DNA of 64,000 nucleotides, from positions 1 through 64,000 of the IMG/VR virus record IMGVR_UViG_3300031669_000016. The stretch is one strand, 5' to 3'. The stretch comes from a virus. Both the position numbers and the translations under genes were made by a program. The notes beneath the pieces were generated by a model. It did no database searches, was not told the origin of the DNA, and saw only the letters and a program-made list of their open reading frames with translations. This document shows, piece after piece, positions 2,229 to 41,211 of the stretch; position 1 is the stretch's first letter; every line of letters begins with the position of its first letter.

Positions 2229-2236
2229 CATAGGAG

Positions 2237-4144: not shown

Positions 4145-4150
4145 GTGATG

Positions 4151-4200
4151 GTGGGGCCGCCGCTAGAAGATTGGAAACGCTGTGGTTTTGGCGGCCCCAC
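4151..4200. promoter_or_regulatory. perfect 11-bp inverted repeat (GTGGGGCCGCC...GGCGGCCCCAC) between scaffold and decoration genes
   Basis: Arms at 4151-4161 and 4190-4200 with a 28-nt loop, intergenic. Confidence 0.45.
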
Positions 4201-4229
4201 TCTAAAGTTGCTAATACATGTGAAGGGAG

Positions 4230-4733: not shown

Positions 4734-4771
4734 ACGGTTTCCATTTTACGAGAAGGAGGTGAACAAGCGAT

Positions 4772-6010: not shown

Positions 6011-6033
6011 TGGGTTGGGGTTTGGGATGGTCA

Positions 6034-6068
6034 GGGGCTGGGCTGGCCCGCCAGTCCAGCCCCCTTTG
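6034..6068 (+). terminator. stem-loop terminator after capsid gene
   Basis: GGGGCTGGGCTGG-cccg-CCAGTCCAGCCCC followed by CTTTG. Confidence 0.6.
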
Positions 6069-6202
6069 CTATGAATCTTTCTGTGGGAGTGAACGAGGCC
6101 TAGATGCCATCTTTAGCCTCAAAAGACACCTCCGGCACCTTCCTCGCTGCTGAGGGTGAGACCGAGGTCATAGAGGGGCGTGCCTGGGAAACCAAGGAGC
6201 GG

Positions 6203-6751
6203 TTAGTGTTCGGTTTTGCGAATGGCGTATCGCTTGCGGGCCGTCGCGTTCCTGCATTGTTTGCACTGGGACGTGAGGGCATCGTGGGTCTGGCCGCTCC
6301 TGCCAAATTGATCCCGAGGAAGAATCTGGCGGCATTTGTTGCATTGGGCATCGCTGTCAGAGATGTACCTATCGGACACCCGGTGAGTTCGCATATGCTC
6401 CCCCTGGCTCCGAAGGAGAACGAGGTTACCCAATGTGTTGTTGAGCCTGTTCCCGTCCCTATGGTGGACTGTTTCTCCGGGGGCCAGATCCCTTCCAAGA
6501 TGTTGCGCCATGAGCCACCGGTGTTCCTTCATTTAGATACCATCGACGAAGATACATCGGTAGCCCTGGGCGTTGACATAGCCACCTTTCCACCGGTGGT
6601 TGTTCGGTCCCCTCTCGGAAAGGCCGAAACACCGCTTGCCACAAAAGCGAGAGGTCTTCGCGATGGTGCGGAGCGGATGATATGCAACACCACACTGGGC
6701 ACAGATACGTATCGTGTTGACGAGGCGACGAGTTCTCTTTTCCATAGGCAT
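6203..6751 (-). pseudogene. HNH homing endonuclease interrupted by one in-frame TAA (6533-6535)
   Basis: ORFs 6533..6751 (CAQC, FCGKRC, NHRWKGG) and 6203..6532 (EHR...VHHRDGNRLNNTLGNL, CNKC/CKQC) are contiguous in the same frame. Confidence 0.75.
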
Positions 6752-6780
6752 ATGATACCACAGTCAGAGAGATACGTCAA
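6752..6780 (-). promoter_or_regulatory. sigma70-type promoter for the antisense HNH gene
   Basis: Minus strand reads TTGACG-17 nt-TATCAT with a TG extension. ATG at 6745 would give a leaderless mRNA. Confidence 0.6.
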
Positions 6781-6819
6781 CGGGTGTTGTTCCCATTATA
6801 CCGACCGGGGGAACCATCC

Positions 6820-9708
6820 ATGTCCTCTCTAGCCCAGCGCGATACAAGCGGCACATTCACTCAGAACGTCGTTCTTGGTGAGGGGCCGGAAGCCATAACG
6901 CGGAGGACGCGGGCATTCAAGGTCTTCCCGCTTCCCGACGCCCCCGACGGCCGAAAGAGATTCAGGGTTGGCGGAAGCGTCGGCCCCATCCACTACCGCC
7001 TGAACCCCTTCTCTGCGGTCGAGCAGTACAAGGAGATCGACCTGACTATCGGCGCGGGGCGTGGGTGCGACCTGGAGATGATGGCGAACGGCTACCAGAT
7101 CCAGTGTTGGCACAGCCGGCCGAACGCGGTCAGCGCGGAAGAGCCGCTGTATGTGATGCGGTTCCTGAGGGCGGGGCACTGGGTGGAAGTCTCCCCCATC
7201 GCGCTGTACTACCAGAACGACCTCGGGCAGCGGCAGGCTGTGGGCGCGCTGAAGGGTGGCGTCAAGGCCGCGGTTGACAATGACGCCTACTCGGTGCGAT
7301 ATGCGGACGCGTTCGGGCCGGGCCTGAGCCTGCGCTATCAGCTCGTGCCCGACGAGTTCTACCCCGTCGTGGAGATAGCATCGGCGGCCGCGCTGCCAGC
7401 ACCCACGATAGACCCGCACGGCCTGCGCCTGGTCAAACTCTTCTCCATTCGCTGGGATACGGACACTGACCCCGTGGCGCTCACGCACGCGGACAAGCTG
7501 AATCCGGGCGAGCTCACCCTCGACAAGAGCAAGTTCGACAGTGCGGTGAAGGTCGAGCAGACCACCGCCTTCCCGGCTGAGGCGGTGGTGGATGTCGCCG
7601 CGAGGACAGAGCGCAGGCAGGCCTGGTGGTGGAAGCCGCCTCGGTGCTGGGATTCCTCGGAAGAAGTGCAGGACGTCCCCACCAAGTGGGAGTGGGCGGA
7701 GAATCAGGGACAGTTCGCAGTAGCGGTGAGCGTGGCGGTCGCTGACCTGGACCATGTCATCTACCCGGTATATCTTGATACGACGCCTATTGGCGAGGAG
7801 CAGGTGGGGGCACAAACAGATGATGCGGGGGCGTACGGCTCCACTTATCCGGGCACGAGTACGCTTCTCTCCCTTACCCAGTCGTACCTCTATTTTGGTG
7901 CCGGCACATCCACCTTCTACATGTTTGGGGCCCGGTTTACGACAATACCCATACCCAAGGACGCGACGATAGACTCGGCGTCGCTCTCCTTGCGCTCATA
8001 CACAAACTCCAGCGTGCAACTCGATATTACCATCGCCGCCGAAGCGGCCGACAGCGCCGTGACCTTCGATACCGTGCCAACGCACAGCGTCGTCACCGCG
8101 TACAATGCGAAGGGGGCACAGTCGGCGCAATGGGATGTCGGAACTGCCGCATGGGTTACAGATGGCTGGTATCAAAGCTCAGATATCGCCGCCGTAATAG
8201 AGGAGGTGACGGATCGGGCCGGCTGGAGTTCCGGGAATGATTTGGCGTTGATCGTATACAACACCTCATCGGATCGGCCTGGCTCCTCTGAGTATCGACG
8301 GTGCCACTCCTATGATCAGAGCGGCAACGTCTCCGGCCCTAAGTTCAATGCGAGCTACACGGAGGGGGGAGGGGCTGACGTCACAGTTTTTCCTGCCGCG
8401 CTGACTCTGACTGCCGCGGTACAGGGACCCATCCCGGTTATCACATCCTCGCCCTCGGCACTGGCCTTGACGGCCGCGCTGCCAACCCCCGAGCCGGTCG
8501 TGACCTCCACGCCCGCGGCACTCGCGCTCACCGCCGCTGTCCTGGCACCCACGGAGACCGGCACTGCCGTTGTCGAGCCATCAACGCTGGCCTTGGTGGC
8601 GGCGCTCCTCGCACCCGAGCCGACTGTTATCAGCACTCCTTCTCCGCTCGCTATATCTGCGGCGTTGGGCGCGCCTGAACCGATCATAACCATGATGCCG
8701 TCCGTACTGGCGCTGACGGCGGCGGTAGAAGCACCGGGGGTCATCGCGGGCGCGATAGTGGAACCAGCAGCAGTCCCCTTGACTGCGGCACTCCTCACAC
8801 CCGAACCAGTAGTGACGATGACTCCTGCGGCGCTGGCTCTGTCTATTGCAGTAGAGGCCCCGGAACCAACCATCATAGCCACGCCGGGCGCGCTCAGTTT
8901 GAATGCTGCCCTGGAAGCAGCCGAGCCAGTGGTCGTCACTACACCGGCCGCCCTGGTCCTGACGGGCGCGGTCGAGACACCGACCACGATAGCGGGCGCG
9001 GTTGTGGAACCGTCAGTGGTATCTCTTACCGCCACGGTCCTTGCGCCAGAACCCACCATCATCACGAGCCCAGCCTCCCTGGCCCTGACGCTCGCCCTCC
9101 TCGATCCTGAGGCGACAGTGGTGGTGACGCCTGCTGCCCTCGCGCTTGCACTCGGCATAGAGGCACCAGTACCAGTCATCATCGCCTCTGCCACGGCACT
9201 TGCCCTGACGCTTGGTCTGCCCGTGCCAGTGATCATCGCGACTACCATTGGGGATGTGATTGTGCTACCGGCGGCCCTCGCGATGACCTTGGGCCTTCTC
9301 GTCCCTGATCCACAGGTAAGTGTGCAACCCAATGCGTTGGCACTGACGGCCACACTCGAAGCTCCCGTTCCTACCATCATCATCGCGCCCGACGCGCTCG
9401 CCCTCGTTCTCAACCTGGAGACGCCAGTCGTGACTGCCGGCGCGGTTGTTCTGCCAGCCACTCTGGCGTTGACGCTGGGCCTACAGACGCCGGCATATGC
9501 GGTGATAGTGACTCCGGTGGCACTCTCGCTCACCGCAACCGTGGAGAGTCCTACGGTGACGGCCACCGCCATCGTCCTGCCAGTGGCCTTGGCATTGAGT
9601 CTTGGACTGCCATCGCCTGTCGTAGTTGTCGTCTCATCTGAATTGATGCGCCAACGTAGAACGTTGCGAATTACGGGGTCGAGGATCGGTACGAGGCAGA
9701 TACTATGA
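6820..9708 (+). CDS. large virion structural protein with about 20 hydrophobic Ala/Pro/Thr/Val/Leu repeats
   Basis: ORF 6784..9708; likely start MSSLAQRD at 6820. Central beta-sandwich-like segment (IPKDATIDSASLSL); C-terminal ~20-aa repeats of the form P-x-ALALTAA-xx-PEP. Confidence 0.6.
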   Translation: MSSLAQRDTSGTFTQNVVLGEGPEAITRRTRAFKVFPLPDAPDGRKRFRVGGSVGPIHYRLNPFSAVEQYKEIDLTIGAGRGCDLEMMANGYQIQCWHSRPNAVSAEEPLYVMRFLRAGHWVEVSPIALYYQNDLGQRQAVGALKGGVKAAVDNDAYSVRYADAFGPGLSLRYQLVPDEFYPVVEIASAAALPAPTIDPHGLRLVKLFSIRWDTDTDPVALTHADKLNPGELTLDKSKFDSAVKVEQTTAFPAEAVVDVAARTERRQAWWWKPPRCWDSSEEVQDVPTKWEWAENQGQFAVAVSVAVADLDHVIYPVYLDTTPIGEEQVGAQTDDAGAYGSTYPGTSTLLSLTQSYLYFGAGTSTFYMFGARFTTIPIPKDATIDSASLSLRSYTNSSVQLDITIAAEAADSAVTFDTVPTHSVVTAYNAKGAQSAQWDVGTAAWVTDGWYQSSDIAAVIEEVTDRAGWSSGNDLALIVYNTSSDRPGSSEYRRCHSYDQSGNVSGPKFNASYTEGGGADVTVFPAALTLTAAVQGPIPVITSSPSALALTAALPTPEPVVTSTPAALALTAAVLAPTETGTAVVEPSTLALVAALLAPEPTVISTPSPLAISAALGAPEPIITMMPSVLALTAAVEAPGVIAGAIVEPAAVPLTAALLTPEPVVTMTPAALALSIAVEAPEPTIIATPGALSLNAALEAAEPVVVTTPAALVLTGAVETPTTIAGAVVEPSVVSLTATVLAPEPTIITSPASLALTLALLDPEATVVVTPAALALALGIEAPVPVIIASATALALTLGLPVPVIIATTIGDVIVLPAALAMTLGLLVPDPQVSVQPNALALTATLEAPVPTIIIAPDALALVLNLETPVVTAGAVVLPATLALTLGLQTPAYAVIVTPVALSLTATVESPTVTATAIVLPVALALSLGLPSPVVVVVSSELMRQRRTLRITGSRIGTRQIL

Positions 9709-9905
9709 GGAAGGAACTGGTCGAAAAGGATGGGCAACTCTATCTTATTCTTGGCGACAAGGCCATCCCAGTCGAGATAGTGGATGGAACGCCACAGGTA
9801 AGTGGTGTCTGGTCCGAACAGAGACCAAACGCGCAGGGCGGGACGGACTGCATCGTCCACGTTCCCTGTCTAGATATAGTCGGCGAAGTCAAACGACCGC
9901 ACTAA
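9705..9905 (+). CDS. small hypothetical protein
   Basis: 66 aa, ATGA overlap with the upstream gene. Confidence 0.55.
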   Translation: MRKELVEKDGQLYLILGDKAIPVEIVDGTPQVSGVWSEQRPNAQGGTDCIVHVPCLDIVGEVKRPH

Positions 9906-9921
9906 AGGAGAGTGGTAGAGG

Positions 9922-10332
9922 ATGGCATCTGGAATCTACAATCGCTTCAAGGCCAATCTGATGAACAAGGTGGTGGATCTGGAGGCAGACACCATCATGT
10001 GCGCCCTCATGGACGACTCCCATGCATTCACGGCCACACACAACCTCTGGGGCGAGGTGTCGGCCAATGACATCGGGGACAAGGTCGTCTATACAGTTGG
10101 TGGCATCGCGCTCGGAGGCAAGGCGGTGACGCAGGGAGCGACAACCAAGTTCGCTGCGACCGACTTCGAGGCCGGCCCAGGTGAGACACTTTCTGCCTAT
10201 CATGCCGTGCTGTGGGATGACCTCGCCGCCGATGAGCTGATCTGCTCCATCGATTTCGGTGGGATACAGGCCTGTACCAACGGCACGTTCAAGATCCAGT
10301 GGCACGTCGACGGGATTATCAATCTGACCTAA
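9922..10332 (+). CDS. small virion structural protein
   Basis: 136 aa (MASGIYNRFKANLMNKVVDLEADTIMCALM...LICSIDFG...GTFKIQW), a pattern common in phage structural modules. Confidence 0.6.
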   Translation: MASGIYNRFKANLMNKVVDLEADTIMCALMDDSHAFTATHNLWGEVSANDIGDKVVYTVGGIALGGKAVTQGATTKFAATDFEAGPGETLSAYHAVLWDDLAADELICSIDFGGIQACTNGTFKIQWHVDGIINLT

Positions 10333-10360
10333 CGGGGCGTAGAAGAACGGAGACTGCGCA

Positions 10361-11377
10361 ATGCCGCCGCTGATCCAACAGAATAATACGAGCCATGGCC
10401 AAGAGTTCCTGATGGTGGATGAGGTCGATGGGCACACAAAAAAGACCGGTCTTACACCGACCGTCACGCTCTGGAAACAGGGCGCGTCGGATTGGATCAA
10501 TGCCGCTGGTGAGATCGTCGAACTCGGCAAGGGCCTCTATGAATTACTGTTTGCTCTCTCCGATGTTGACACCCTCGGCAAGTTCATCCTCCATGCCGAG
10601 GCCGAAGGTGCTAACGATACCGATGTTAGCTGCCGTATCGTCACCTACGATCCCTATCTGGGCACCGCGGCCGCGGCCCAGTACGCTATCGTCGCCGAGG
10701 CTGGGGTGGTCGCAGAGGTCCGACAAGCCGCAGGCGATTTGGGATTGTATCGAAGCCATATCGTACCTATCGGGATGGTCAACGGTGTGAACAAGCGGTT
10801 TCAGAGTCCACTTGTACCCTTGGCGGCAGATGCAAAGCTCTACAACGCCGCAACGGGCGACCAGATCAGTACCGGCTTCGCGCTCGATCCCGATACAGGA
10901 ATGCTGGTCTACTCAACAGCTCCGTCTGCGGCGAGTCAACATTACTTGGAGGGGATGCTGTACCGCTACCGCTCAACCCAGGTCGGCATTGCGTTGAAGC
11001 AGGCCGGTCTGTGGCTTTACGGCATGTGGGGAGCGACCGCCTATGTCGTCTCTGAGTCAGGTGGTATCGTGACGTTAGCGCCCCAACCGAGTGGACTCGA
11101 TTGGCCCATTTTGGTGATTGCGGGCGCACGATTCCTGTTGAGTACACGTTGGGCCGATGCGGCCTCGGACGCGGTACGACTGAGTGATGCGGCTGGTCAG
11201 ATTGATACGACATCACGCGCCTCGCGGCTCGGGGAGGTCGTAAAGGCACTCGATACCCAACTCTTTATCTTGGCCCAAGACGCTGGCTATACCTTGCCGG
11301 TGCTACCGGCGAGTACTGACGGTTCACTCTATCAGGGCCAGGCCTGGTCAGTCGAACGGTATGGAGATATTCCATAA
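10361..11377 (+). CDS. putative head-tail adaptor with N-terminal beta-sandwich domain
   Basis: 338 aa; neck-module position. Confidence 0.4.
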   Translation: MPPLIQQNNTSHGQEFLMVDEVDGHTKKTGLTPTVTLWKQGASDWINAAGEIVELGKGLYELLFALSDVDTLGKFILHAEAEGANDTDVSCRIVTYDPYLGTAAAAQYAIVAEAGVVAEVRQAAGDLGLYRSHIVPIGMVNGVNKRFQSPLVPLAADAKLYNAATGDQISTGFALDPDTGMLVYSTAPSAASQHYLEGMLYRYRSTQVGIALKQAGLWLYGMWGATAYVVSESGGIVTLAPQPSGLDWPILVIAGARFLLSTRWADAASDAVRLSDAAGQIDTTSRASRLGEVVKALDTQLFILAQDAGYTLPVLPASTDGSLYQGQAWSVERYGDIP

Positions 11378-18564: not shown

Positions 18565-19764
18565 GTGCAAGACCATGATCCCAAGGAAGTAATCCTCACC
18601 ACGATGGAAGCGTTCGACCCGGCCCGCCAAGATCCCATTGAGCAGATCTCGTTGGGGCGGGACAGTATCGAGATGCGTATCGTCCGCATCTCCGAGATAG
18701 TACGCCAAGCCGTCGAGGCTACACAGCAGCGCTTCGCGCGCGACTTACGAGACCGCTTCATGGGCGAGGTCGAACGCGGCGAACGCTTACTACCCCTAAT
18801 CGAGCGCATCGAAGTCATCAAGGACGAGTTAGGCCTATGGGGCGTTGAAGAGTTGGGCGCGGCGTGGCTATCTGTCTGGACAGCGCGCCAGCCCGAGGAT
18901 GAGGAGCGCAAGCTACCGGAACCGGATCGCTCCGCTTGGGATGAAGCGCAGTACCGCACCGACCTGCTCCGACTCTTCGTCATCGAGACACTCGCCCAGA
19001 TCGAGATGGTGCGCATACCCGCCGTGCTTCCAAAAGCGCTGCTCGATATCGGTCAGCTCAAGTCGTCAGACGAGCTGGACGAGGATGAACAGACCAAGCG
19101 GCTGCTCGAAGTCATAGATCGGGAAACGACGGAGCGGATCCGCCATCTCCGCCAACTGCCCGGCGAACGGGTCTGGAAGCGACTGTATCACGCCGCCGCG
19201 GTCGAACCCGCCTTTGAACAGGCTCAGCAATACACGCGCGTTTTGATGTTGTATGCCTGCGCACGCAAGCTGGATGATCGTAACGCTCCCTTCTTTGATC
19301 TGTCAGCCGTTGGCATCACGTCGATAGCCCAGGCGCTGCGTAGCCCGCAACAGGCATACGACGCCATGCTTGCCGAGTTCAAGGGCGATGAGCGGGTACT
19401 CAACGAAGTGGCCCAACGGGTCGTGATTGTGGGCGGTGCACTCTCACCCGAAATGGCGGCGCGTCTCGAAGAGGCGGCCAAAGAGCCCTTTCGTTCAGGC
19501 CCTTTGCGACATAGCACGGAAACAGGGGCAGGTGCCAGGGTGGGAGGGGACATCGTTGCTGCAAATCCCAGCGAACACGATGTACCTGGCGCGTCGAGCG
19601 TGGTTCTGGGTGGACGCGAAGGAGGCGCTTCGGCAGACCACAAGCCTGGGGCATCCGCGCCCGCCCAAGTGGATCATATCAGATTATCTGACGCAGTTTT
19701 TGGATCTGGTGCAACGGTTGCCTCATCCAGAGGAGGTGGGGGAGTACAAGACGTCGGCGCGTGA
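18565..19764 (+). CDS. tail assembly chaperone (G-like)
   Basis: AGGAGG RBS; lies between tube and tape measure; overlapped by a second protein-like frame. Confidence 0.6.
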   Translation: MQDHDPKEVILTTMEAFDPARQDPIEQISLGRDSIEMRIVRISEIVRQAVEATQQRFARDLRDRFMGEVERGERLLPLIERIEVIKDELGLWGVEELGAAWLSVWTARQPEDEERKLPEPDRSAWDEAQYRTDLLRLFVIETLAQIEMVRIPAVLPKALLDIGQLKSSDELDEDEQTKRLLEVIDRETTERIRHLRQLPGERVWKRLYHAAAVEPAFEQAQQYTRVLMLYACARKLDDRNAPFFDLSAVGITSIAQALRSPQQAYDAMLAEFKGDERVLNEVAQRVVIVGGALSPEMAARLEEAAKEPFRSGPLRHSTETGAGARVGGDIVAANPSEHDVPGASSVVLGGREGGASADHKPGASAPAQVDHIRLSDAVFGSGATVASSRGGGGVQDVGA

Positions 19765-19924
19765 AATAGACTGGGTGTCTTTGTTTGGGGGCCATGTGAT
19801 ACCGCGCTACGATCTCTGGCAGGCTTTGGAGGAAATGGTCTACGGTCATTGCATCGCGGTTGAAGACAACCCAGCAATCGCTGATTATCTGAAGCGACAC
19901 CGCGCCAGACTCCGAGACATTTGA
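19486..19924 (+). CDS. tail assembly chaperone frameshift extension (T-like)
   Basis: The +1-frame ORF 19427..19924 lacks a good RBS; candidate shift site CCC TTT CGT at 19486-19494. Confidence 0.5.
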
Positions 19925-20691
19925 TGACTAAAAGAGATCCGGCCAAAAAGAAAGAGTATGATCAGCAATACTGCCTCCAGAATCAGGAGGCCATCCGTGC
20001 GAGGCATAAGGCATACTATGAAGCAAATCGAGATGCCATCGTCGTGAGACAGAAGGCATACTACGAGACAAACCGGGAGAATCTTCTGATACAAAGTCGG
20101 CAGTATCGTGAAGAGCACCGCGCTGAGTTGGGGATACAAGAGGCCATCTACCGTGAGAAGAATCGAGAAGCACTCCGTATAACAGCAAAAGCTTATCGGA
20201 GGGCGAATCCAGAAAAGGTGAAGGCGAAGAATGCTGCTTATTATCAGAAGAATCGAGATGCCCTTCGCGCGAAGCGGAAGATATATCGGGAGGCGAATCG
20301 GGAGGAACGCTGTATCGCGGCGAAGCGGTGGCAAGAGAACAACCCCGACAAATACGCAGCGATTCACCAAAGAAGCGAGCACCGCCGACGCGCCCGGCTT
20401 GCCAATGTTTCGGGTGAGTACACCCAAGAGCAGTGGTATCAAATACTTACTCGGTATGGTATGGCCTGTGCCAAGTGTGGGCGGTCTCTTACGCGACGCT
20501 CTGCAACTGTAGATCACTTCGTTCCAATTGTTGCTGGTGGTCCGAACTGCGCCGAGAACTTGCAACCGTTATGTAAATCATGTAACAGTCGTAAGCATAC
20601 TCGAATACCCACGTTTGAGGAACAGTTAGCATTCATCGCACGTCGCAAGGCACTAGGCCTTCCAGCCGCCTTGATCGCGGAGGTGCTCTAA
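19921..20691 (+). CDS. HNH endonuclease with N-terminal Y(R/Y)E(A/K)NR(E/D) repeats
   Basis: CAKC...TVDHFVPIVAGG.N..ENLQPLCKSCNSRK. Confidence 0.9.
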   Translation: MMTKRDPAKKKEYDQQYCLQNQEAIRARHKAYYEANRDAIVVRQKAYYETNRENLLIQSRQYREEHRAELGIQEAIYREKNREALRITAKAYRRANPEKVKAKNAAYYQKNRDALRAKRKIYREANREERCIAAKRWQENNPDKYAAIHQRSEHRRRARLANVSGEYTQEQWYQILTRYGMACAKCGRSLTRRSATVDHFVPIVAGGPNCAENLQPLCKSCNSRKHTRIPTFEEQLAFIARRKALGLPAALIAEVL

Positions 20692-20692
20692 G

Positions 20693-21178
20693 ATGCCACT
20701 CAAAGATCCTGTCAAGCGAAAGGAATATCGACGGCAATGGCGCCTCCAGACCCGGGATGCCCGTCACGCGACAGAGAAAGTATGGCGGGAAGCGAACCGG
20801 GATGCCTGTCGCGCGAAAAAGAAAGTGTGGCAGGCAGCGAACCGGGATGCCCGTCGAAGGGGTGCACAGCGGAGGCGCGCTTGTATTACCAATGTTCCGG
20901 GTGAATACACCAAAGATGAATGGCAGGATGTGCTTGTCCGATACGGCATGACTTGTGCTATATGCGGACATCCCTTTACAGCGCGGTCCGCGACAGTAGA
21001 CCACTTTGTTCCTCTGAGTGCGGGTGGTCCTGCCTTTATTAGTAATATTCAACCCCTGTGTAAATCATGCAACAGTCGCAAGGGTAGTCGGATACCTACG
21101 TTTGAGGAACAACTCGCATTCATCGCTCATCGAAAGACGCTAGGCCTTCCAGCCGCTTTGGTCGCGGAGGTGCTCTAA
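20693..21178 (+). CDS. HNH endonuclease, tandem paralog of the previous gene
   Basis: CAIC...TVDHFVPLSAGG...NIQPLCKSCNSRK; C-terminus nearly identical to the upstream HNH. Confidence 0.9.
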   Translation: MPLKDPVKRKEYRRQWRLQTRDARHATEKVWREANRDACRAKKKVWQAANRDARRRGAQRRRACITNVPGEYTKDEWQDVLVRYGMTCAICGHPFTARSATVDHFVPLSAGGPAFISNIQPLCKSCNSRKGSRIPTFEEQLAFIAHRKTLGLPAALVAEVL

Positions 21179-21179
21179 G

Positions 21180-24100
21180 CTGCCAAGCGCTCAATATTCC
21201 TATTTGCTCGGAATAGGCTTGGACCCGGTCACCGTCCAAAGGCTGCAGGCACAGCTAATCCAGCTCGCCCAGCAGGCCTCGAAAGTCGGTACGGCCCAGG
21301 CGCGTACCACTGTGGGTGTCACCCCACAGCAAACCACCGCAACCCAACGCGCCACACGTCAGGCCGCGGCTGGCTTTGCTACTACAAGTAAGCAGGCTAC
21401 GCAGGCAACCCAAGCAGTCAAAGGCTTCGGTGGCGCGATGCAAGAGGCGGGTCGCGGAATCTCTCATGCCGCGGGCAAGGTCCTTCTGTGGAGCGTGGCA
21501 ACAGGTGCGATCTACGGTTCACTGCAAGCCCTCCGCGGTGCTGTCGAGACCATCAACGACGTGGACTTCGCGTTGACTGGTTTGAGGAAGGTATACGCCG
21601 GAAACATCGCTGATCTCGGTCAGATGAAGAGGGCCGCGGTCGATATGGCGATGGCTTATGGTTCTGGAATCTCCGACGTCCTGAATGGTATGCGCGACTG
21701 GGCTCGGCAGGGCTACCGTGCTCGTGATGTAATCGAGTTGACAAGGGTTAGCTTGCTTGCCCAGAACATCGCCGAGATGGATGCTGTACAAGCAACCCGC
21801 TACTTGACGGCGGCCCTGAATCAGTTTGATCTTGAGGCCACTCAAGCAATTACTGTCCTCGACACGTGGAACGAACTAAGCAACCGCTATGCCGCAACGA
21901 CGCAGGACATCGCGGAAGGCACTGCCCGCCTCGGCCGCACCGCCCACGATGCTGGCCTCTCGATCCAAGAAGCCAGCGCGATGGTCGCCGTTCTAGTCGA
22001 GCAGACGAAGCGATCGGGCCAAGAAATCGGAACGGCGATGCGTACCGTTCTGACCTACGCCTATCGCGAGCGCAACGTCAAAGAGCTTGAGAAGATCGGC
22101 ATTTATGTTCGCCGTGAGCGGGGCGAACTGCTGGCTATGATGGACGTTTTGACGCAGCTATCTGTCAAGTGGGAGGTACTTAGCGATACCCAGCGTCAGG
22201 CCATTGCTGAAGCCTTCGGCGTGCGGCGGGTCACCGAGTTCCGGACCCTAATCCAGGGCATGCCCGCCATCCTTGAGGCGACGCGCATCGCGTATGACAG
22301 CCAAGGCTCCGCGTTGCGGGAGAACATCATCTTTCTGGATTCCCTGCAGGTCCGTTATGGGCGGTTGAAGGCCGCGCTTCAAGCACTCGCGGTCGGAACG
22401 GAAACGCAGGATACGTTGAAGAGCATTGTCAGCGTACTCACCAGCCTCGTTACCGTTGTCGATAAGGTTGGCATCAAGACCATCTTCGCTGCGGGCGCTC
22501 TGGTTCTGATCACGCGCTACACCCAAGCCTACTCGGCCGCGCTGATTACGTTCCATACCCAAATGGTTTTGGGCACACAAGCAGTAGCGGCAGGTACGGT
22601 GACAATGGCGGCATGGCAACTCCAGGTCAATGCTGCAACACTTGCCCTGCAGCGATTCTGGGTCACACTTGGTCCTGTTGGTTGGGCCGTGGCCGCTGTT
22701 GGTGTTGCTTTCGGGACTTGGAAGGCCATTGATGCTTATGTTTATCGCCATGAGCGTGCGGCACGTGGACTGGAGCGACAGGCCGAGGACATTGAGCAAA
22801 CAACCCTGGAGGCGCTTCGCCGCGAAGAAGCTGGCTACCGCGCCCAGGTCGACGCGTTGACGCGGCGTGCCGAACTGATCCAATCCTTACGTGATCAGTA
22901 CGAAGCGGTTGGAAAGAGTACTGATAAGGCCGCGGACAAGCAAAAGCAGATGGCGAAGATCCTCGAACTGCTTCAAGCCGCAACGGGTGATGCCAGCTTA
23001 GCTTTACGCGACGGCTTAGCTCCCGCATTTGGCATCGTCGAGCGCGCCGCACAGAGCGCTCTTATCGGCATTACCGATGCGATGGACAAGATGCGGGCCA
23101 GTATTGCCCAAACACTGCGGGGACAAATCCAGGGTATTAGGGGCGATATCGAACTGCGCAGAGATGCCGTCGATAACTTTGCGAAGGCCGCGGAGAGAGA
23201 ACGCAAGACGGTCCTTGGCATGTTCGACACTATTGCTAAGGGGCAGAAGCTGTATGTTGACCCCTTTGCCGGTGTGGATCGAAAAGATGCCGAGGCTGTG
23301 TTGTCTCGGACACATGAGATGAAGGATCTGTCCGGCCTGCAGACCGGTGTTACCAACAGGCTCAGCAATGCGGTGGGTGAGTACAACGTTGCGGCGGGTC
23401 GTCGAATCGAGTTGGAGGGTACACTCAAGACCACTGAACAAGCCCTACTCGAACTCGAAATGGAACGCGCCGATCTTCCCAAAAGGATCGTATCGGATCC
23501 GGATCCGCTCGGCACTAAGAAAGCTGGTAAGAGCCTCCGCAGTTATCAGAATCAGGTCCGATCCGTTATCAATCTGGTACGCGAACTCCAACAGGCGATG
23601 CGGCGTATGGGCGCGGAAGGTCTCGGGCCGTGGTATCAAGAAATCCAACGCTTCGACCAGACTTGGGAGGATATGCAGGACCGCGCGCTGATGGCGTTGG
23701 ACCAGATCAATGAAACCTTGTCCGAAGATATCCCGGCACAGGCGCGCAAAGCCCTGCTTGGGGCACGTGACGAACTGGTCGGCGTGCTCAACACCTTCGC
23801 TACTCAATATCCCCTAGAGTTCCAGCGCGCATGGGAACGTGCACTGCATATCATCCGCGGCGGTGCTGAGGCATTACAGTTCCAGCTCCGTGAGTACCGC
23901 GAAGAGTTGGAGAAGACCCTAGCCGATTGGGTTCGGCGCGGTAAGATCACGCCCGACCAGGCAACGGAGATGCAACGGCTCGCCACGCTGACCAAGCAAT
24001 TCGAGGTCATCTCTAAGAGTGCCGATCTGCTGGAACGGCAGTACCAGTTCGAACGACAAATCACAGAACTCGAAATGGGGAAGGGTTGGGAGTTCTCGCG

Positions 24101-25904
24101 TGAACGCGCCGAGATGTTGCGGCGTGATGTGGAGCAGGCCGCCGGCGCGTTGACCGCGTTACTACTGGCTGCTCGGGCCGAGGGCGCTGTCGGTGAGACC
24201 ATCGGGGAGATTATAACGGAAATGCGCGCAAAGGCGTCTGATCTCGCCGATGCCTTACTTACCGCCGAACAGAAGCTCGTTGGTGCAAATGCAGCGGTGC
24301 TGGACTTCCGAGACGGCATTGTTGGGCTTGGTCAAGACCTCGAACTCTTCCTACTCGACCGACTCGGCGATGTTACCGGGAAGATCAAGTACCTACAAGA
24401 CATCTTCCAGCGCGCCCTAGACCTCAAAGATGTCAACGCTCAGATCGCGGCGTTCCGTAGCTTAGTCGAGCTGCACCAAGAGCTTGTGGAGGTACAGTAC
24501 GACTACTTGAAATTGCAGGCCGACACGGACACGTTCCAGCAGTTCGCGTTGTTACAGCAGCGTTACGGCGCGATGACCGACCCGCGCGAGCGCATCCGGC
24601 TCTGGAAAGAGATGCAGGACATCCAACGCGACTACGCTGACTGGCAACGCGAGGTTGCCGCGGGTATGGAGGACTACGGCCTTGACCCCGTGGCGAGGAC
24701 GACGCGTGAGATCGAGCGGCTGTGGGAGTTACTCGAAGAGTTTCCCCTAACAACAGAAGAGGGGCGGGGGTATTTCGACGAACTCCTCAGCCGCGCCACG
24801 CAGTTTGGTGATGCCTGGCGCGCCGAGGTGAAGCAGCTCAGTAGTAGCTTTAGCGATGCGATGGCCGATGCTATCCAAGGCACTGGCGATCTAACCGAAG
24901 CAATTGCTGGCATTTTCGAGGACATCGGACGGGAATGGCTGAGGACCTACATTAGCCGTCAGATGGAGGGCGTGTTCGAGGAGTTGAACCGCGCCGCTTA
25001 CCGCGCCCGTGGGGAACCTGTTGATAGAGCGACTGACATTATGGGCCGCCTCCGCGAGATCAAACTACCCGAGAAGCCAGAGCTTCCTGCTCTGGAAGGC
25101 CTCGACCTGCAATTGAGTAGCCTTGGTCAGACCTGTTTAGACGCGGCGACAAAAATGGAGCAGTCATTGGTCGCCATAGATGCGGACACTGCCGCTATCA
25201 TCGAGCACACCCGCGCACTGGTCGAGTCGGCGCAGCAGATCGGTGCTACGGGTGGTGGTGGGGCCGACTTCAATAGCTTGCTCCTTCAAGCAGCGGCTGG
25301 AGGCGGGGGTGAGGGTGGAGGCATTCCAGGAGGTGGGGATTACGGAGTGAAGCCGTGGCAAAAGTCGGTGATCGGAGCCGCTGGACTTTACAGTGCATAC
25401 GAAACTGGATCACCAATGGCAGGTATGGTTGGTGGTGCCTTAGCATTTGGCCCCTGGGGCGCTGTGGCCGGCCTTGGTCTTGGAATACTGGGCAAGCGTA
25501 AGAAGAAAAAGGAGGCGGATGCCCAGCAGGCCGCGTTCGCACAGAAATTGATGGCGAAATACGGCGCTTTCTGGTCCCCGCCTGATGTGATGTGGAGTAC
25601 TACTCCATTCCTTTCCGCAATGGACTATCCTGCCTACGCCTCTTACCGCGGCTACGCCGCACCGAAACCGTCCGCGGCATATCCTACCGTATCTGCGGCA
25701 TGGACCGCGCCGACGCGCTACCCCACTGTGACGGCTCCACAATTCGATCTGCGCGAACTGGCACGACGCATCCAGCCAATCACGGTGAACCTACACGGCA
25801 CGGGCTATACGGCGCGTGATGCGCGCCAGATCGCCGTTTCGATCCAACGCGAGCAGGCCCGGCTCTACGAGCGCGAACAAAAAGCCGGGGTTAGGGTGAG
25901 GTGA
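21180..25904 (+). CDS. tape measure protein (TP901-like core)
   Basis: About 1570 aa, helical and Ala-rich, with NELSNRYAATTQDIAEG...SGQEIGTAMRT core. Start is CTG 21180 (RBS-supported) or TTG 21204. Confidence 0.9.
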   Translation: MPSAQYSYLLGIGLDPVTVQRLQAQLIQLAQQASKVGTAQARTTVGVTPQQTTATQRATRQAAAGFATTSKQATQATQAVKGFGGAMQEAGRGISHAAGKVLLWSVATGAIYGSLQALRGAVETINDVDFALTGLRKVYAGNIADLGQMKRAAVDMAMAYGSGISDVLNGMRDWARQGYRARDVIELTRVSLLAQNIAEMDAVQATRYLTAALNQFDLEATQAITVLDTWNELSNRYAATTQDIAEGTARLGRTAHDAGLSIQEASAMVAVLVEQTKRSGQEIGTAMRTVLTYAYRERNVKELEKIGIYVRRERGELLAMMDVLTQLSVKWEVLSDTQRQAIAEAFGVRRVTEFRTLIQGMPAILEATRIAYDSQGSALRENIIFLDSLQVRYGRLKAALQALAVGTETQDTLKSIVSVLTSLVTVVDKVGIKTIFAAGALVLITRYTQAYSAALITFHTQMVLGTQAVAAGTVTMAAWQLQVNAATLALQRFWVTLGPVGWAVAAVGVAFGTWKAIDAYVYRHERAARGLERQAEDIEQTTLEALRREEAGYRAQVDALTRRAELIQSLRDQYEAVGKSTDKAADKQKQMAKILELLQAATGDASLALRDGLAPAFGIVERAAQSALIGITDAMDKMRASIAQTLRGQIQGIRGDIELRRDAVDNFAKAAERERKTVLGMFDTIAKGQKLYVDPFAGVDRKDAEAVLSRTHEMKDLSGLQTGVTNRLSNAVGEYNVAAGRRIELEGTLKTTEQALLELEMERADLPKRIVSDPDPLGTKKAGKSLRSYQNQVRSVINLVRELQQAMRRMGAEGLGPWYQEIQRFDQTWEDMQDRALMALDQINETLSEDIPAQARKALLGARDELVGVLNTFATQYPLEFQRAWERALHIIRGGAEALQFQLREYREELEKTLADWVRRGKITPDQATEMQRLATLTKQFEVISKSADLLERQYQFERQITELEMGKGWEFSRERAEMLRRDVEQAAGALTALLLAARAEGAVGETIGEIITEMRAKASDLADALLTAEQKLVGANAAVLDFRDGIVGLGQDLELFLLDRLGDVTGKIKYLQDIFQRALDLKDVNAQIAAFRSLVELHQELVEVQYDYLKLQADTDTFQQFALLQQRYGAMTDPRERIRLWKEMQDIQRDYADWQREVAAGMEDYGLDPVARTTREIERLWELLEEFPLTTEEGRGYFDELLSRATQFGDAWRAEVKQLSSSFSDAMADAIQGTGDLTEAIAGIFEDIGREWLRTYISRQMEGVFEELNRAAYRARGEPVDRATDIMGRLREIKLPEKPELPALEGLDLQLSSLGQTCLDAATKMEQSLVAIDADTAAIIEHTRALVESAQQIGATGGGGADFNSLLLQAAAGGGGEGGGIPGGGDYGVKPWQKSVIGAAGLYSAYETGSPMAGMVGGALAFGPWGAVAGLGLGILGKRKKKKEADAQQAAFAQKLMAKYGAFWSPPDVMWSTTPFLSAMDYPAYASYRGYAAPKPSAAYPTVSAAWTAPTRYPTVTAPQFDLRELARRIQPITVNLHGTGYTARDARQIAVSIQREQARLYEREQKAGVRVR

Positions 25905-35594: not shown

Positions 35595-36581
35595 TCATAA
35601 CGCTTTCTGATAGGCATCGTACAGCAGTTTCCCGGCTCGCTTCCATGTAAAGTTATCTCGGATATGCCGCGCCAGCGACTCGTTGCGACGGGGCCATCGC
35701 GACATCGCCACTTCCCAAGCTGTGCGCGTCGCAACTACATGAGTCTCGGGGTAACCGGCACGTCCGTAGTGGGCGTAGTCGCCGAGGTATTCTTGTATCG
35801 CTGGAATGTCTGTGGTCACGACCTCACAACCAGTGATGCCAGCTTCGAGGTTGGTCAGACCGGGATTATCGTAGTGTGTGGGTAGGACGCTTACTGCCGC
35901 ACCGGCGAACCAGTGCATTATCTCGCTGTGAGGACGCGCGCCCATAAGATGGATCCAGGGTCGCCCCTCCGCGATCTGTTCACAACGCGCATAGACCGGA
36001 TGGCGGCAATCGCCGATGCAGTAGATTGGGAACTTCAGATCTGCGTCAACCATGGCCTGAAGGAACTTATCCTGTGCCTTCCTGTCCTCGTAGCGCGCGG
36101 CGAGGATGACATAGGGTTCGTGTGGTACGACCCCATAGTCGGGTTGTGCTAAGTACCAATCCGCGGGCGCGCCTGTCGGAATCCAGATGCTCTTCGCCTC
36201 TAACACATCGGCAGGCAGGCCGAGATCATAGGCGAGTTCGAATGGTTCGCGATGGATGTTGATGAAGAGGAAACGGGCCTGCAACGCGATCTCGGCACAG
36301 CGTTCACGTGAAATGAAAAAGATGCCAGGACTGTGGATGGTCTGGATGACCAGCGGTACACCGCGTTCCTTAGCGATCTGAGCGGCTTGATCCGCTTCTT
36401 GTAGGATGATGTTGAAGGCGTGAACCAACTGGAACTGTTCTCGCCGCCAATCGACGTCGTGACAATGGATCACTTCAACATCGGGTGGGAGATGTTGCCG
36501 TAACATCTTCCGCTGCGTCTCATCGCCGCCCTGATGCGCCCCCTTCTCGTATGGAGTGCGGTTGACGGTCAGTACCCTCAT
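35595..36581 (-). CDS. glycosyltransferase family 4
   Basis: GGDETQ, ARYEDRKAQ, DNPGLTNLEAG motifs. Confidence 0.85.
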   Translation of the reverse strand: MRVLTVNRTPYEKGAHQGGDETQRKMLRQHLPPDVEVIHCHDVDWRREQFQLVHAFNIILQEADQAAQIAKERGVPLVIQTIHSPGIFFISRERCAEIALQARFLFINIHREPFELAYDLGLPADVLEAKSIWIPTGAPADWYLAQPDYGVVPHEPYVILAARYEDRKAQDKFLQAMVDADLKFPIYCIGDCRHPVYARCEQIAEGRPWIHLMGARPHSEIMHWFAGAAVSVLPTHYDNPGLTNLEAGITGCEVVTTDIPAIQEYLGDYAHYGRAGYPETHVVATRTAWEVAMSRWPRRNESLARHIRDNFTWKRAGKLLYDAYQKAL

Positions 36582-38010: not shown

Positions 38011-38901
38011 TCAGAACTCACCGCCATCCTTCCACTTCGTGGTGTAGTCAGCACCTACGGTAACTGGCAGTCGGGCCTGCCAACGCCCCCGCCAACGGTT
38101 GTAGTTGAGCGTATACATCAACTGATCGTAGTTCAGAAGGCCGGCCGGGAGCTCTCTGATGCCCAACCCTTCGGCGACTGCACGCGCCTGATCACCATAG
38201 GCAGGTTGGGAACCGGCCGCACCTCCACCATGGTCGGCTCGAATCGGTAAGGTGCGGATGTGCCATCCCGCTGCCAACCACGCACAGCAGACCTCGCGGT
38301 CGTACCAGTGATGGAGGCCGGGATAGTCCTGATCGAGAAGAGTTGGGATTGTGTCGGTACGATAGAAGATGCCGCAGCCGTCAAGAGTAGCCGAAGCCAT
38401 TCCGTCATCAGGTGTCCACGCGCCATGGATGCGCCATATCTCACCGGTTCCGTTGCCCCCCCATTGCTTACCAATCAGACGGGAGTGGGTACCGATACGC
38501 CCCCCATCCGGTGCCAGTCCGAACGCACCGACTAAACCGGCAAGGCCCAGCTTCGCATCTTCCTCGAAGGCGTGTGCGATACAAAGATCCCATCCGACAT
38601 CCCAGATCAAGACATCGTAATGGATGAAGGCGAGGATGTCGGCATCGGTGTAGTCGGCGGCGTATCGGATCGACTCGAAAACGCCCAAGCTTTGATCCGG
38701 CACGAAGTAGCGGGTGTGTCCCCGGTCTTTCGTGATGGTGCCGCAAAGTCCGGCATGCGTTGTAATCACGTCGAGATCAGGGGTGTTGTCGACAACAATG
38801 ATCTCGGTGCCCGAATCGGAAACTGTCCGCACGACCTGAGCAAGACATGCCTCAAGTAGGTCTGTTCGACCAAGTACTGGAATCGCGACTGCGACCCTCA
38901 T
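38011..38901 (-). CDS. glycosyltransferase family 2
   Basis: VAIPV, IIVVDN, FIHYDV, LDG and HWYD motifs. Confidence 0.85.
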   Translation of the reverse strand: MRVAVAIPVLGRTDLLEACLAQVVRTVSDSGTEIIVVDNTPDLDVITTHAGLCGTITKDRGHTRYFVPDQSLGVFESIRYAADYTDADILAFIHYDVLIWDVGWDLCIAHAFEEDAKLGLAGLVGAFGLAPDGGRIGTHSRLIGKQWGGNGTGEIWRIHGAWTPDDGMASATLDGCGIFYRTDTIPTLLDQDYPGLHHWYDREVCCAWLAAGWHIRTLPIRADHGGGAAGSQPAYGDQARAVAEGLGIRELPAGLLNYDQLMYTLNYNRWRGRWQARLPVTVGADYTTKWKDGGEF

Positions 38902-38940
38902 CTAGTCTCACCCCGATGTATCCCACCAACAATCTACTAT

Positions 38941-38969
38941 AGTATACCACAGTACCTACGGGTTGTCAT
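38941..38969 (-). promoter_or_regulatory. sigma70-type promoter of the GT2-sigma-phosphatase operon
   Basis: Minus strand reads ATGACA (38969-38964), 17 nt, TATACT (38946-38941), with a TG extension. Confidence 0.7.
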
Positions 38970-39022
38970 CTTTGCATGCCTAGATCCTACCCATAATCGA
39001 AGATTTGAGGCGAAAGCTTCGA

Positions 39023-39400
39023 CCAGCATCCTCGCGCGCGTAGGAGTGACTGTGTGGTATACCATAGTAATCGTGCCCTCGCGCGCGTGGAAGTAACCAA
39101 CAGTAAGGCGGCAACGGAACCGGCGAGGTCGTCGTGCCCTCGCGCGCGTGGAGGTAACGTGTGGCGCGTTGGGTTTCTGTGGTTTGCTGGTCGTGCCCTC
39201 GCGCGCGTGGGAGTAACGGCCAATATCCTACCCATCTTAGGCAACACATCGTCGTGCCCTCGCGTGCGTGGAAATAACCGCCCTTGTTTCGTCACTGAAG
39301 GCGGTCCAACCGTCGTGCCCTCGCGCGCGAGGGAGTAACCCGGAGGCCGCCAGGAAGAGGGGGAATCCAGAGGTCGTGCCCTCGCGCGCGAGGGAGTAAC
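39023..39400 (-). CRISPR. CRISPR array, 7 repeats of 28 bp (GTTACTCCCWCGCGCGCGAGGGCACGAC), 6 spacers
   Basis: Repeats at 39373, 39312, 39251, 39190, 39131, 39070 and a degenerate copy at 39023. Spacers are 33, 33, 33, 31, 33 and 19 nt. Palindromic core CCCTCGC-GC-GCGAGGG. The two cas-proximal repeats are identical and the most distal one is the most degenerate. Confidence 0.95.
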
Positions 39401-39535
39401 ACTGCCATACCTATCGTCCAAACATGTTTCATCACAATCTCTACCCTCCCTGCGCGCGCCCCGGCGAGGCCGGGGATTAGGATTTGATCCGCGACCAGCC
39501 TTCTCCGGGCTGGTGGCAGGTCGGGGACCCACGAC
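39401..39535 (-). ncRNA. candidate tracrRNA/scaffold plus leader
   Basis: Two anti-repeat segments (39530-39535 and 39442-39459) and hairpins (39494-39514, 39459-39475) between the cas stop codon and the first repeat. Confidence 0.55.
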
Positions 39536-40899
39536 TATTTAGCCCCCACTCTCAACGCTCCAAAGGAGCGGTGGAACCCTCGATAGCCTCCTGATGTATT
39601 CCACTCCGCCTTGCGATAAAACGCCCGCCGAGCGATGTTCACAGCAGCTGCCTCGTCGGCGTCGAAATTGACATCACAAGCCGGACAGTAGAGATCTTCA
39701 CCTTCCCGTTTGGCATCCTCCCCACACCGAGGACAAATCAACGATGAGTAAGCAGCGAAGACCTCGCGTGGTGGTAACATACCAGCCATCCGCAACTTGT
39801 AGCTGAGGATATGACCCATCTTGGCATACTGGGAACGTATAAATGCGCCGCTTGTCTGTAGGTTGAGATCTTCCATCACTACCAACGAGTGGTGCTCAAC
39901 GGCCAACGCAACCAACGCATTGGCGATTGTGTGGAGCATCTGCTCTTGGTGTCGACGCTGCCAGGCTTGACGACGCACATGCCGACCACGCCTCTGTGCG
40001 GCCTGGCGCTTCCGTCCCAATAGGATCTGTAGAGGACGCACGTCCCGACCAAGGCTCCCAACTCTGAGTGGTCGACCCTCTTTGTCTATGATTGCGTATG
40101 CCGCCTGTTTGATGATGCCGCGATCAACTCCAAGATAGGTTTCCTCTTCACCCCGCTCCATACTCTCGACTTGGAACTCGAAGCTTATATGTAGGAAGTA
40201 CTCGCCATCGCGCCGACAAAGGCAGGCACAGCGCGCCTTCCCTTTCGTGAGATATTCCTCTTCGTGCCATATCCCAAACGCGAGTGGGAAACGCAACCTT
40301 GTAGGCTTCTGTGGCTTCGGCTGCACCGGTAGTGATACCACCCACTTCTCGTTGTCGAGTCGTTCGAGAGCAAAATCTCGGGCGCGTACATAGAGAAGCG
40401 GCCTGACAATCTCGCGCTCCTCACGTAGCAGACGGGATTGCCACGCTTGGTGGTCGAATGGATCACCAACCCACTCAGCGGCCTCTGCAAGGGCCTTCTG
40501 GTACCCATCAGACTGATATCCGTACAGTGGTGAGGGGTACTGGGGTTCATCAGTTGCGTCCTCATGGTTCTTCCTATCTTCCCAGGCCTGTCGTAGTTTG
40601 CAGTACGAAACAAGGTTCGTTAGGATATCTGATACTAAGCCGTCATATAGAGCGCTTGGCAAATCCGTTGCTGATAGCAAAGGACGGATTTCCTTCATTG
40701 CATTGAAGGGGCTGGGGAGTCTCTTACCATCGTGGAGATCACGAATCCACAGATCAGCCATGGGGCGGCAGCGCTCCAATGTATCTATATAGGCCTTGCT
40801 GTAACGGGCGAATACCTGGTCTAGGAGGGCACGTTTTCCAGTACCGGGATTGTATAGTTTGAGGATGGCTGTTTTCTGTACGATGACTGTGCACCTCAT
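39535..40899 (-). CDS. compact type V effector, TnpB/Cas12f-like RuvC nuclease
   Basis: 454 aa; RuvC-I LGVDRG, RuvC-II VVMEDL, Zn finger CPRC...CPAC, RuvC-III DADEAAAVNIA; adjacent to the CRISPR array. Confidence 0.9.
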   Translation of the reverse strand: MRCTVIVQKTAILKLYNPGTGKRALLDQVFARYSKAYIDTLERCRPMADLWIRDLHDGKRLPSPFNAMKEIRPLLSATDLPSALYDGLVSDILTNLVSYCKLRQAWEDRKNHEDATDEPQYPSPLYGYQSDGYQKALAEAAEWVGDPFDHQAWQSRLLREEREIVRPLLYVRARDFALERLDNEKWVVSLPVQPKPQKPTRLRFPLAFGIWHEEEYLTKGKARCACLCRRDGEYFLHISFEFQVESMERGEEETYLGVDRGIIKQAAYAIIDKEGRPLRVGSLGRDVRPLQILLGRKRQAAQRRGRHVRRQAWQRRHQEQMLHTIANALVALAVEHHSLVVMEDLNLQTSGAFIRSQYAKMGHILSYKLRMAGMLPPREVFAAYSSLICPRCGEDAKREGEDLYCPACDVNFDADEAAAVNIARRAFYRKAEWNTSGGYRGFHRSFGALRVGAK

Positions 40900-41211
40900 C
40901 TATTTCTTCATCAACCCTCGCTCTTCAAACAGTTTCTTGAGCTGGGTCCGCCACCAGCCCAACAGGCCATCCCGCAACAGCAGGGTGATGAGGCGGGCGA
41001 CAACATAGGGGTGATGCGCCGCGATCCAGATCTGGTGCTGTAAGATCGGATAGGGTTCGGTGTCGTTGCTATGGGTTGCATCGACCTGGGCGGGGATGCA
41101 AACGCAGGCGTTGCAGACCATCGATTGCTTCGACCCATCAGGCCACGTTATCATAACGGTTACATAGCCTTCTTCTTCGAGTTGAACCGCTTTGAACTGG
41201 GACTCTGTCAT
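40900..41211 (-). CDS. hypothetical protein immediately upstream of the cas gene
   Basis: 103 aa; its stop abuts the cas ATG. Confidence 0.55.
   Translation of the reverse strand: MTESQFKAVQLEEEGYVTVMITWPDGSKQSMVCNACVCIPAQVDATHSNDTEPYPILQHQIWIAAHHPYVVARLITLLLRDGLLGWWRTQLKKLFEERGLMKK

Follow-up and report, generated by a model that had tools for sequence, protein, structure and literature searches.

A soil phage carries a Cas12f-like CRISPR cassette with a spacer that nearly matches its own tape-measure gene

The stretch of DNA analysed here, referred to below as the window, is the first 64 kb of the 75,174-bp IMG/VR virus record IMGVR_UViG_3300031669_000016, which is rated about 81% complete. 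On its - strand it carries a cassette composed of a compact type V effector gene, a candidate trans-activating CRISPR RNA (tracrRNA) and a CRISPR array, and one spacer of this array matches, at 29 of 31 positions, a site near the start of the phage's own tape-measure gene. The array is set in a bona fide viral genome, the 75-kb record containing the tape-measure gene, replication genes and two integrases. The relevant features, in window coordinates, with lengths in nucleotides (nt) or amino acids (aa), are as follows.

21219..25904, + strand: tail length tape-measure gene, 1561 aa (PHROG E 2e-76, Pfam PF10145)
21324..21326, + strand: CCA, candidate protospacer-adjacent motif (PAM), 5' flank of the near-self site; the same CCA lies at 38434-38436
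21327..21357, + strand: near-self protospacer, agreeing with spacer 4 at 29/31 positions and differing from it at 21338 and 21340
38437..38469, + strand: spacer-5-like site in a glycosyltransferase (GT2) gene (38011-38901, - strand); 5' flank 38434-38436 is CCA
38941..38969, - strand: promoter-like ATGACA-17-TATACT, placed exactly at the cassette's left edge and retained in cassette-less siblings
38969..40905, - strand: whole cas12-tracr-array cassette, an indel in whose place siblings have 31 nt
39023..39400, - strand: CRISPR array, six 28-nt repeats plus a degenerate terminal repeat, five full spacers plus a 19-nt terminal spacer
39098..39130, - strand: spacer 5, resembling the neighbouring glycosyltransferase gene; best genome match 24/33
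39159..39189, - strand: spacer 4, 31 nt, a guide nearly matching the tape-measure gene
39401..39537, - strand: candidate tracrRNA/leader between cas gene and array, with a hairpin and two anti-repeats
39535..40899, - strand: Cas12f-like type V effector of 454 aa (P0001); RuvC residues D259/E343/D415, zinc ribbon of the C4 type

The reverse complement of spacer 4 matches positions 21327-21357 of the + strand, and this is the sole match of such a kind in the window. The number expected by chance was 0.00 (none of 100 dinucleotide-preserving shuffles gave a match), and an analytic estimate for five spacers against 128 kb is ~6e-10. With TTG at 21219 as the likely start codon of the tape-measure gene, the site lies 108-138 nt inside the gene and in frame with it, over codons 37-47. 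The two mismatched bases fall at guide positions 12 and 14, the spacer having A and the genome C at both; one is synonymous (ACC/ACA) and the other exchanges Ala for Glu, such that the spacer allele has the codons ACA GAA and would encode QQTTETQRAT where the carrier encodes QQTTATQRAT. The 5' flank at 21322-21326 reads CCCCA. An earlier note on this DNA, made from the letters alone, had described the match, its two mismatches and their coding effects, the flank and the tape-measure assignment, and on each of these points the present analysis agrees with it.

The full spacers of the array measure 33, 33, 33, 31 and 33 nt, spacer 4 being shorter than the others by 2 nt. Repeats proximal to the cas gene are identical and distal ones are decayed, the 3' 16 nt being invariant across repeats 1-5, and the repeat that precedes spacer 4 keeps its 3' 16 nt intact. 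When the invariant 21 nt of the repeat were compared with one genome from each of 185,579 species, 16 single scattered matches and zero arrays were found; a host clue is therefore absent and borrowing from a host array is unsupported. As a separate observation, the truncated 19-nt terminal spacer (39051-39069) matches 38935-38953 at 16/19 positions, all 16 of them within the first 17; the matched stretch covers the -10 region of the promoter-like sequence at the cassette edge, and its 5' flank is ATC and not CCA. The terminal spacer might serve as a regulatory guide, or the resemblance might stem from an inverted duplication that insertion of the cassette left behind.

The region between cas gene and array has the predicted architecture of a tracrRNA. 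GTCGTG, which directly follows the cas stop codon, pairs with CACGAC at the 3' end of the repeat; it is followed by a conserved hairpin, CCCCGG-CCTCG-CCGGGG, and then by a second anti-repeat, GCGCGCGCAGGGAGGG, which is complementary to the 5' half of the repeat with one bulge. The duplex energy of repeat and anti-repeat is -34.9, against a shuffled mean of -27.1. The same organisation recurs in relatives, since all 8 homologues with enough flanking DNA have a co-oriented array directly downstream of the gene, with a decayed repeat at its far end, and in gene sense the last bases of these homologues' repeats are GTGAC, ACGAC or ATGAC, resembling the CACGAC of the window. In 8/8 aligned loci the six bases after the cas stop (GTCGTG, GTCACA or GTCGTA) exactly complement the last six of the locus's own repeat, and the hairpin stem with its CCTCG loop is kept through compensatory changes; over both helices 96/96 cells are paired, 6 pairs are changed on both sides, and 0/500 shuffles did as well. 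In distant relatives (~30-35% identity) the repeats are 37 nt long, read GTTGCA...CTGTGAC and are of the Cas12f kind. A search of 38900-39600 against Rfam gave no match.

Because anti-repeat and repeat co-vary and array polarity is the same in relatives, there is good evidence that the tracrRNA lies on the strand of the gene and that guides are read on the - strand. Counting from the cas gene side, spacer 4 is therefore correctly numbered, mismatch positions 12 and 14 and the 5' flank CCCCA are correctly assigned, and both mismatches would be rA:dG. We rejected a reading of the array on the + strand by a type I-E system of the host: the flanks on that side, GAC and GGT, disagree with one another, and tracrRNA covariation fixes the opposite strand. 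It was also observed that effectors 55-64% identical to the one in the window are split between two array formats, with 28-nt repeats and 33-nt spacers (period 61, type I-E-like) in loci L022, L023, L025 and L028, and 36-nt repeats and 30-nt spacers (period 66) in L026, L027, L029 and L042, the tracrRNA anti-repeats being altered to match in each. This looks like a switch of repeat class inside one effector clade, and would make the family suited to studying the co-evolution of guide RNA and protein.

The effector, whose gene ends 134 nt from the start of the array, has Pfam matches to PF07282 (Cas12f1-like_TNB) and RuvC_1. Its residues D259, E343 and D415, together with the four cysteines of the zinc ribbon, are invariant among 24 homologues, and homologues from metagenomes share 55-64% identity with it. 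An AlphaFold model (predicted local distance difference test score, pLDDT, 81) has AsCas12f, CnCas12f1 and OsCas12f as its top Foldseek matches, over the whole length and at E about 1e-18, with only 13-17% identity in the structural alignments to Cas12f enzymes; CnCas12f1 is the best Cas12f sequence match in the PDB. As in type V-F systems, a single effector in the range of 400-700 aa has a C-terminal split RuvC (D, E, D) and a zinc ribbon, and is accompanied by an adjacent array and a predicted tracrRNA with anti-repeat. The best PADLOC models are likewise Cas12f, covering residues about 204-430 only; the N-terminal 200 aa have no profile match, and the NCBIfam Cas12f2 model scores 68 bits against a cut-off of 450, the Cas12e and TnpB models also falling below theirs. 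Because the curated NCBIfam cut-offs are missed and the PADLOC match is restricted to the C-terminal half, the effector is termed Cas12f-like here rather than a member of a curated family. From its conserved residues and modelled fold the nuclease looks active. Neither Cas1 nor Cas2 is encoded anywhere in the 75-kb record. A TnpB of IS200/IS605 or IS607 was considered and rejected, there being an array, no TnpA among the neighbours, and NCBIfam TnpB scores below cut-off.

The coexistence of spacer and near-target is a property of an abundant population. Six soil metagenome runs (X1-X6) contain the tape-measure region, X1 possibly being the source sample of the record and X3 an independent one. 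Contigs of X1 and X3 tile 21-41 kb evenly at 170-200x with 0-1 differences, the tape-measure and array regions being of equal depth; a single X3 contig spans the whole array with zero differences from the window, and identical tape-measure and Cas12 proteins are found again on several JGI, ENA and Logan contigs. An abundant phage population carries the intact nuclease gene, spacer 4 and the 29/31 site, and, because spacer and near-target coexist stably at a depth of about 180x and the proteins recur identically, the near-self site is evidently tolerated by its carrier.

Related strains co-occur in the same soil habitat, as seen from cassette-less siblings in X4 and X5 and from GT2 alleles that are 93-94% identical. 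Low-depth contigs in these two runs, 2-8% diverged from the window, join position 38968 to 40906, with sides of 35 and 45 nt, and the 31-nt filler at the joint differs between the two by one base. In these sibling phages cas12, tracrRNA and array are all missing, and the upstream open reading frame (ORF) ends a few codons later. The same siblings have indel joints within the first 700 nt of the tape-measure gene. Both the 5' region of the tape-measure gene and the cassette region are variable among kin, given these joints, a divergence at 21185 and branch points around the cassette. Two side observations concern these same regions. In several runs, contigs share the ends of the cas12 gene and then continue into unrelated sequence (loose ends at 39556, 40795 and 40828), so that the slot 38968-40906 seems to hold alternative cargo in different siblings. 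At the other locus, two HNH/endonuclease VII-like genes (19921-20691 and 20693-21178) lie directly upstream of the tape-measure gene, in the usual place of tail chaperones, and an X1/X3 contig diverges at 21185, exactly between them and the tape-measure gene, where variants differ; homing-endonuclease activity may contribute to the variability of the tape-measure 5' end.

A second spacer may point to the same kind of target. The 24/33 match of spacer 5 to the GT2 gene was reached by 1 in 300 shuffles and lies about 650 nt from the array, and six of its nine mismatches are at third codon positions of that gene. Two sibling alleles of the GT2 protein, P0198 and P0199, were found in the protein collection at 93-94% identity; at residue 145 (K145Q) the window has KQW where both siblings have QQW, and spacer 5 encodes QQ. 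The flank of this site supplies the second occurrence of CCA. CCA makes up 2.0% of trinucleotides, the chance that a second site would share the trinucleotide being about 2%, and Cas12f enzymes use T- or C-rich PAMs, with C-rich ones in CnCas12f1 (PMC12216341). From the two flanks, one of them beside a site of only 24/33 similarity, CCA is a candidate PAM.

We favour, with moderate confidence, the explanation that spacer 4 derives from the tape-measure allele of a sibling phage and is used against kin, its carrier being spared by the two mismatches. Our reasons include that the match lies in frame and is not random, that the strand of the guide is settled, that the effector retains its catalytic triad and that siblings without the cassette exist. 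On this explanation spacer 4 would be the guide of a phage-borne Cas12f-like system that comprises effector, tracrRNA and array and lacks adaptation genes. Its origin would most likely be the tape-measure allele of a closely related phage, and kin bearing that allele would be cut under its guidance when they co-infect or superinfect. In the carrier, the rA:dG mismatches at guide positions 12 and 14 would fall within the first ~18-20 nt used by small Cas12 enzymes and would block completion of the R-loop, so that self-cleavage would be avoided. Studies of Cas12a have revealed that nearby pairs of mismatches can abolish protection, and that not every pair does so (PMC10132644).

Several observations weigh against this explanation. 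The spacer allele (ACA GAA) was not found in IMG/VR, which was searched with the exact spacer 4 bearing N at both mismatch positions, nor in GenBank phages or the protein collection, searches from which sequences almost identical to the window may have been missing. For spacers 1-3 there is no target among the available sequences. When read in the GT2 frame, spacer 5 has a stop codon, and it has either drifted or resembles the gene in part fortuitously; old spacers may thus have drifted, and the mismatches of spacer 4 could have the same cause. In the repeat preceding spacer 4, a T-to-A change leaves the hairpin of the repeat weaker, and its pairing with the anti-repeat too. Finally, in Cas12a the mismatch pair 14+15 has little effect (PMC10132644).

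Wider searches for related sequences also returned little. In IMG/VR, the first 500 aa of the tape-measure protein and the sibling GT2 protein had no match, and nothing was retrieved with the Cas12 protein alone, with the 31-nt sibling junction or with the PAM-proximal 24 nt of spacers 1 and 2. GenBank phages have no similarity to 20-44 kb of the window or to the tape-measure gene, and the array gave chance-level similarity only (E = 1); in the protein collection the tape-measure N-terminus recovered only the phage's own protein. None of the relatives' spacers matches this phage or the other relative loci examined, and for a related provirus, whose whole record was searched, a near-self site was found for neither of its two spacers. 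The earlier note's proposal that the spacer came from a close relative is partly supported by the guide strand, the effector, the siblings, spacer 5 and published precedent, while the relative it called for, a sibling phage with a perfect protospacer, was found in none of IMG/VR, GenBank phages and the protein collection.

A close rival, though in our judgement an unlikely one, is that spacer 4 is a relic of a past attack, in which a host, a prophage or a cassette-bearing sibling had aimed it at the lineage of this very phage. The lineage would have escaped through two nearby mutations, or the spacer would have drifted, and the cassette would have recombined in later, leaving spacer 4 without a role now. 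Such a history would suit the position of spacer 4, which lies among decayed repeats in the older portion of the array, distal to the cas gene, as well as its length, the pairing-weakening change in its upstream repeat, and the drift suggested by the in-frame stop of spacer 5. It would also suit the nature of the cassette as a replaceable module: the slot that it occupies is variable, and the read graphs branch there at several alternative points. Under pressure from Cas12a, moreover, second escape mutations tend to arise near the first mismatch (PMC10132644), an arrangement that positions 12 and 14 resemble. Against this history, the repeat before spacer 4 retains its 3' 16 nt, and the other 29 nt of the match are unchanged, whereas a spacer that had long been neutral would be expected to look like spacer 5, at 24/33. 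Conflict among kin would still be implied, and the relic history differs from the explanation that we favour mainly in past course and present activity.

A more far-reaching proposal, which we consider doubtful, is that the near-self spacers form a working kin-discrimination system that kills siblings with alternative tape-measure or glycosyltransferase alleles and so drives hypervariability of the tape-measure 5' end, the arrays, with their period of 61 nt, being filled by the adaptation machinery of the host. In a bolder variant, spacer 4 and the truncated terminal spacer, through their partial matches, would regulate genes of the phage itself without cutting.

It is slightly less probable still that the carrier is spared by a non-functional PAM or by harmless timing of expression, rather than by the mismatches, and that CCA is coincidental. 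The motif was derived from just two flanks, one beside the weaker spacer 5 site, and no protospacer was found for any spacer of this effector family, both of which would accommodate such an account. On the other side stand the ~2% chance that the second site would share the trinucleotide, and the C-rich PAMs known in Cas12f, CnCas12f1 being the best PDB sequence match.

The earlier note had also raised binding without cutting near the start of the tape-measure gene; in this reading the guide would occupy the template strand there and damp late gene expression. We regard this as quite improbable, and found no specific support for it. The guide would indeed pair with the template strand within the first 140 nt of the gene, the truncated terminal spacer resembles the neighbouring promoter at 16/19, and RNA-guided regulators such as TldR are known in phages. 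However, the effector has an intact RuvC triad that does not vary across the family, unbroken pairing would extend over only 11 nt, the relatives' spacers include no conserved self-target, and neither spacer of the related provirus, the sole relative whose whole record could be searched, has a near-self match.

Least credible is an assembly artefact that joins two strains, which the earlier note had named as an outcome fatal to its reading, or a chance match: although the record is a metagenome assembly and read graphs branch at 21185, just upstream of the tape-measure gene, and around the cassette, a chimera is made unlikely by the equal depth of both loci in two runs, the unchanged array in the independent sample X3 and the identical proteins on several independent contigs, and a chance match by its probability of ~6e-10.

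The pattern described here fits, by analogy, that of published virus-borne arrays that target kin while sparing their carrier. The mini-arrays of the Sulfolobales portogloboviruses SPV1 and SPV2 target kin, the orthologous sites of the carrier have point mutations or deletions, and targets are often near the array (Medvedeva et al. 2019, PMC6858448). As in those viruses, an array in a viral genome is paired with a point-mutated site in the carrier, targets partly adjoin the array, and related strains coexist. SPV1 and SPV2 differ in that they are without cas genes and use a type I effector of the host, whereas the phage has its own type V nuclease and tracrRNA, and in that reciprocal perfect targets were demonstrated for them. 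Phage mini-arrays, virus-borne arrays akin to those of SPV1 and SPV2, were reportedly also described in a comparative genomic study that Medvedeva et al. cite as their reference 58, attributed to Faure and colleagues in 2019.

Phage-encoded type V systems provide a second set of comparisons. The Cas12r-CRISPR of Thermus Lalka phages (bioRxiv 10.64898/2026.04.20.719267) likewise combines a compact phage-encoded type V effector with a co-oriented downstream array of short degenerate repeats (28-29 bp) and 31-33-nt spacers, at a type I-E-like period of about 61; it too lacks adaptation genes, has its new spacers beside the cas gene, and has been assigned a proposed role in conflict between mobile elements. 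Cas12r uses only the first 18 nt of its spacers (bioRxiv 10.64898/2026.04.20.719267), and positions 12 and 14 would fall inside such a working guide. Cas12r has 564 aa, is tracrRNA-free, uses an ARG PAM and mostly targets integrative elements, whereas the system described here has 454 aa, a co-varying tracrRNA, a C-rich flank and near-matches to its own kin. Cas12j/CasPhi of huge phages (Al-Shayeb et al. 2020, PMC7162821) is likewise a phage-borne single-effector type V system without adaptation genes, with spacers proposed to hit competing phages. CasPhi enzymes have 700-800 aa, are tracrRNA-free and come from genomes above 200 kb, while the present phage, of about 75-90 kb and probably temperate, has a much smaller, Cas12f-like enzyme.

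With the type V-F enzymes AsCas12f, CnCas12f1 and Un1Cas12f1 the effector shares its size, split RuvC, zinc ribbon, fold (Foldseek E about 1e-18) and dual-RNA architecture, and its more distant relatives have the 37-nt GTTGCA...GTGAC repeats typical of V-F arrays. It is set apart from them by the 13-17% identity of the structural alignments, the missed NCBIfam cut-offs, the 28-nt repeat and the phage setting without cas1, cas2 or cas4. The phenomenon itself is thus already known, and the new instance is an ordinary-sized soil phage with its own miniature nuclease outside the curated families.

If the explanation that we favour is correct, a soil phage, probably temperate, turns its own hypercompact RNA-guided nuclease on close relatives, and a two-base difference in an essential tail gene marks self from non-self. 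The reach of CRISPR-mediated conflict between viruses would then grow beyond archaeal mini-arrays and huge phages to include soil phages of ordinary size, and such conflict would be tied to how a structural gene diversifies. The nuclease, tracrRNA-dependent, 454 aa long and possibly using a C-rich PAM, would also be a candidate tool.

Some further features of the genome may be mentioned. Two tyrosine recombinase/integrase genes lie at record positions 63463-64014 (- strand) and 65659-66243 (+ strand), on account of which the phage is probably temperate; such a lifestyle would fit a role of the cassette in keeping superinfecting kin out of lysogens. Six large ORFs of the presumed head/tail-tube region (window 177-11377 and 18565-19764) have no PHROG match at E 1e-5, and the lineage is poorly represented in the collections searched. 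The genome also encodes a family A DNA polymerase that bears a uracil-DNA-glycosylase-like domain at its N-terminus (48567-51116), an 864-aa N6/N4 DNA methylase (51197-53791) and several glycosyltransferases, including those at 35595-36581 and 38011-38901, which together hint at modification of DNA or of the virion.

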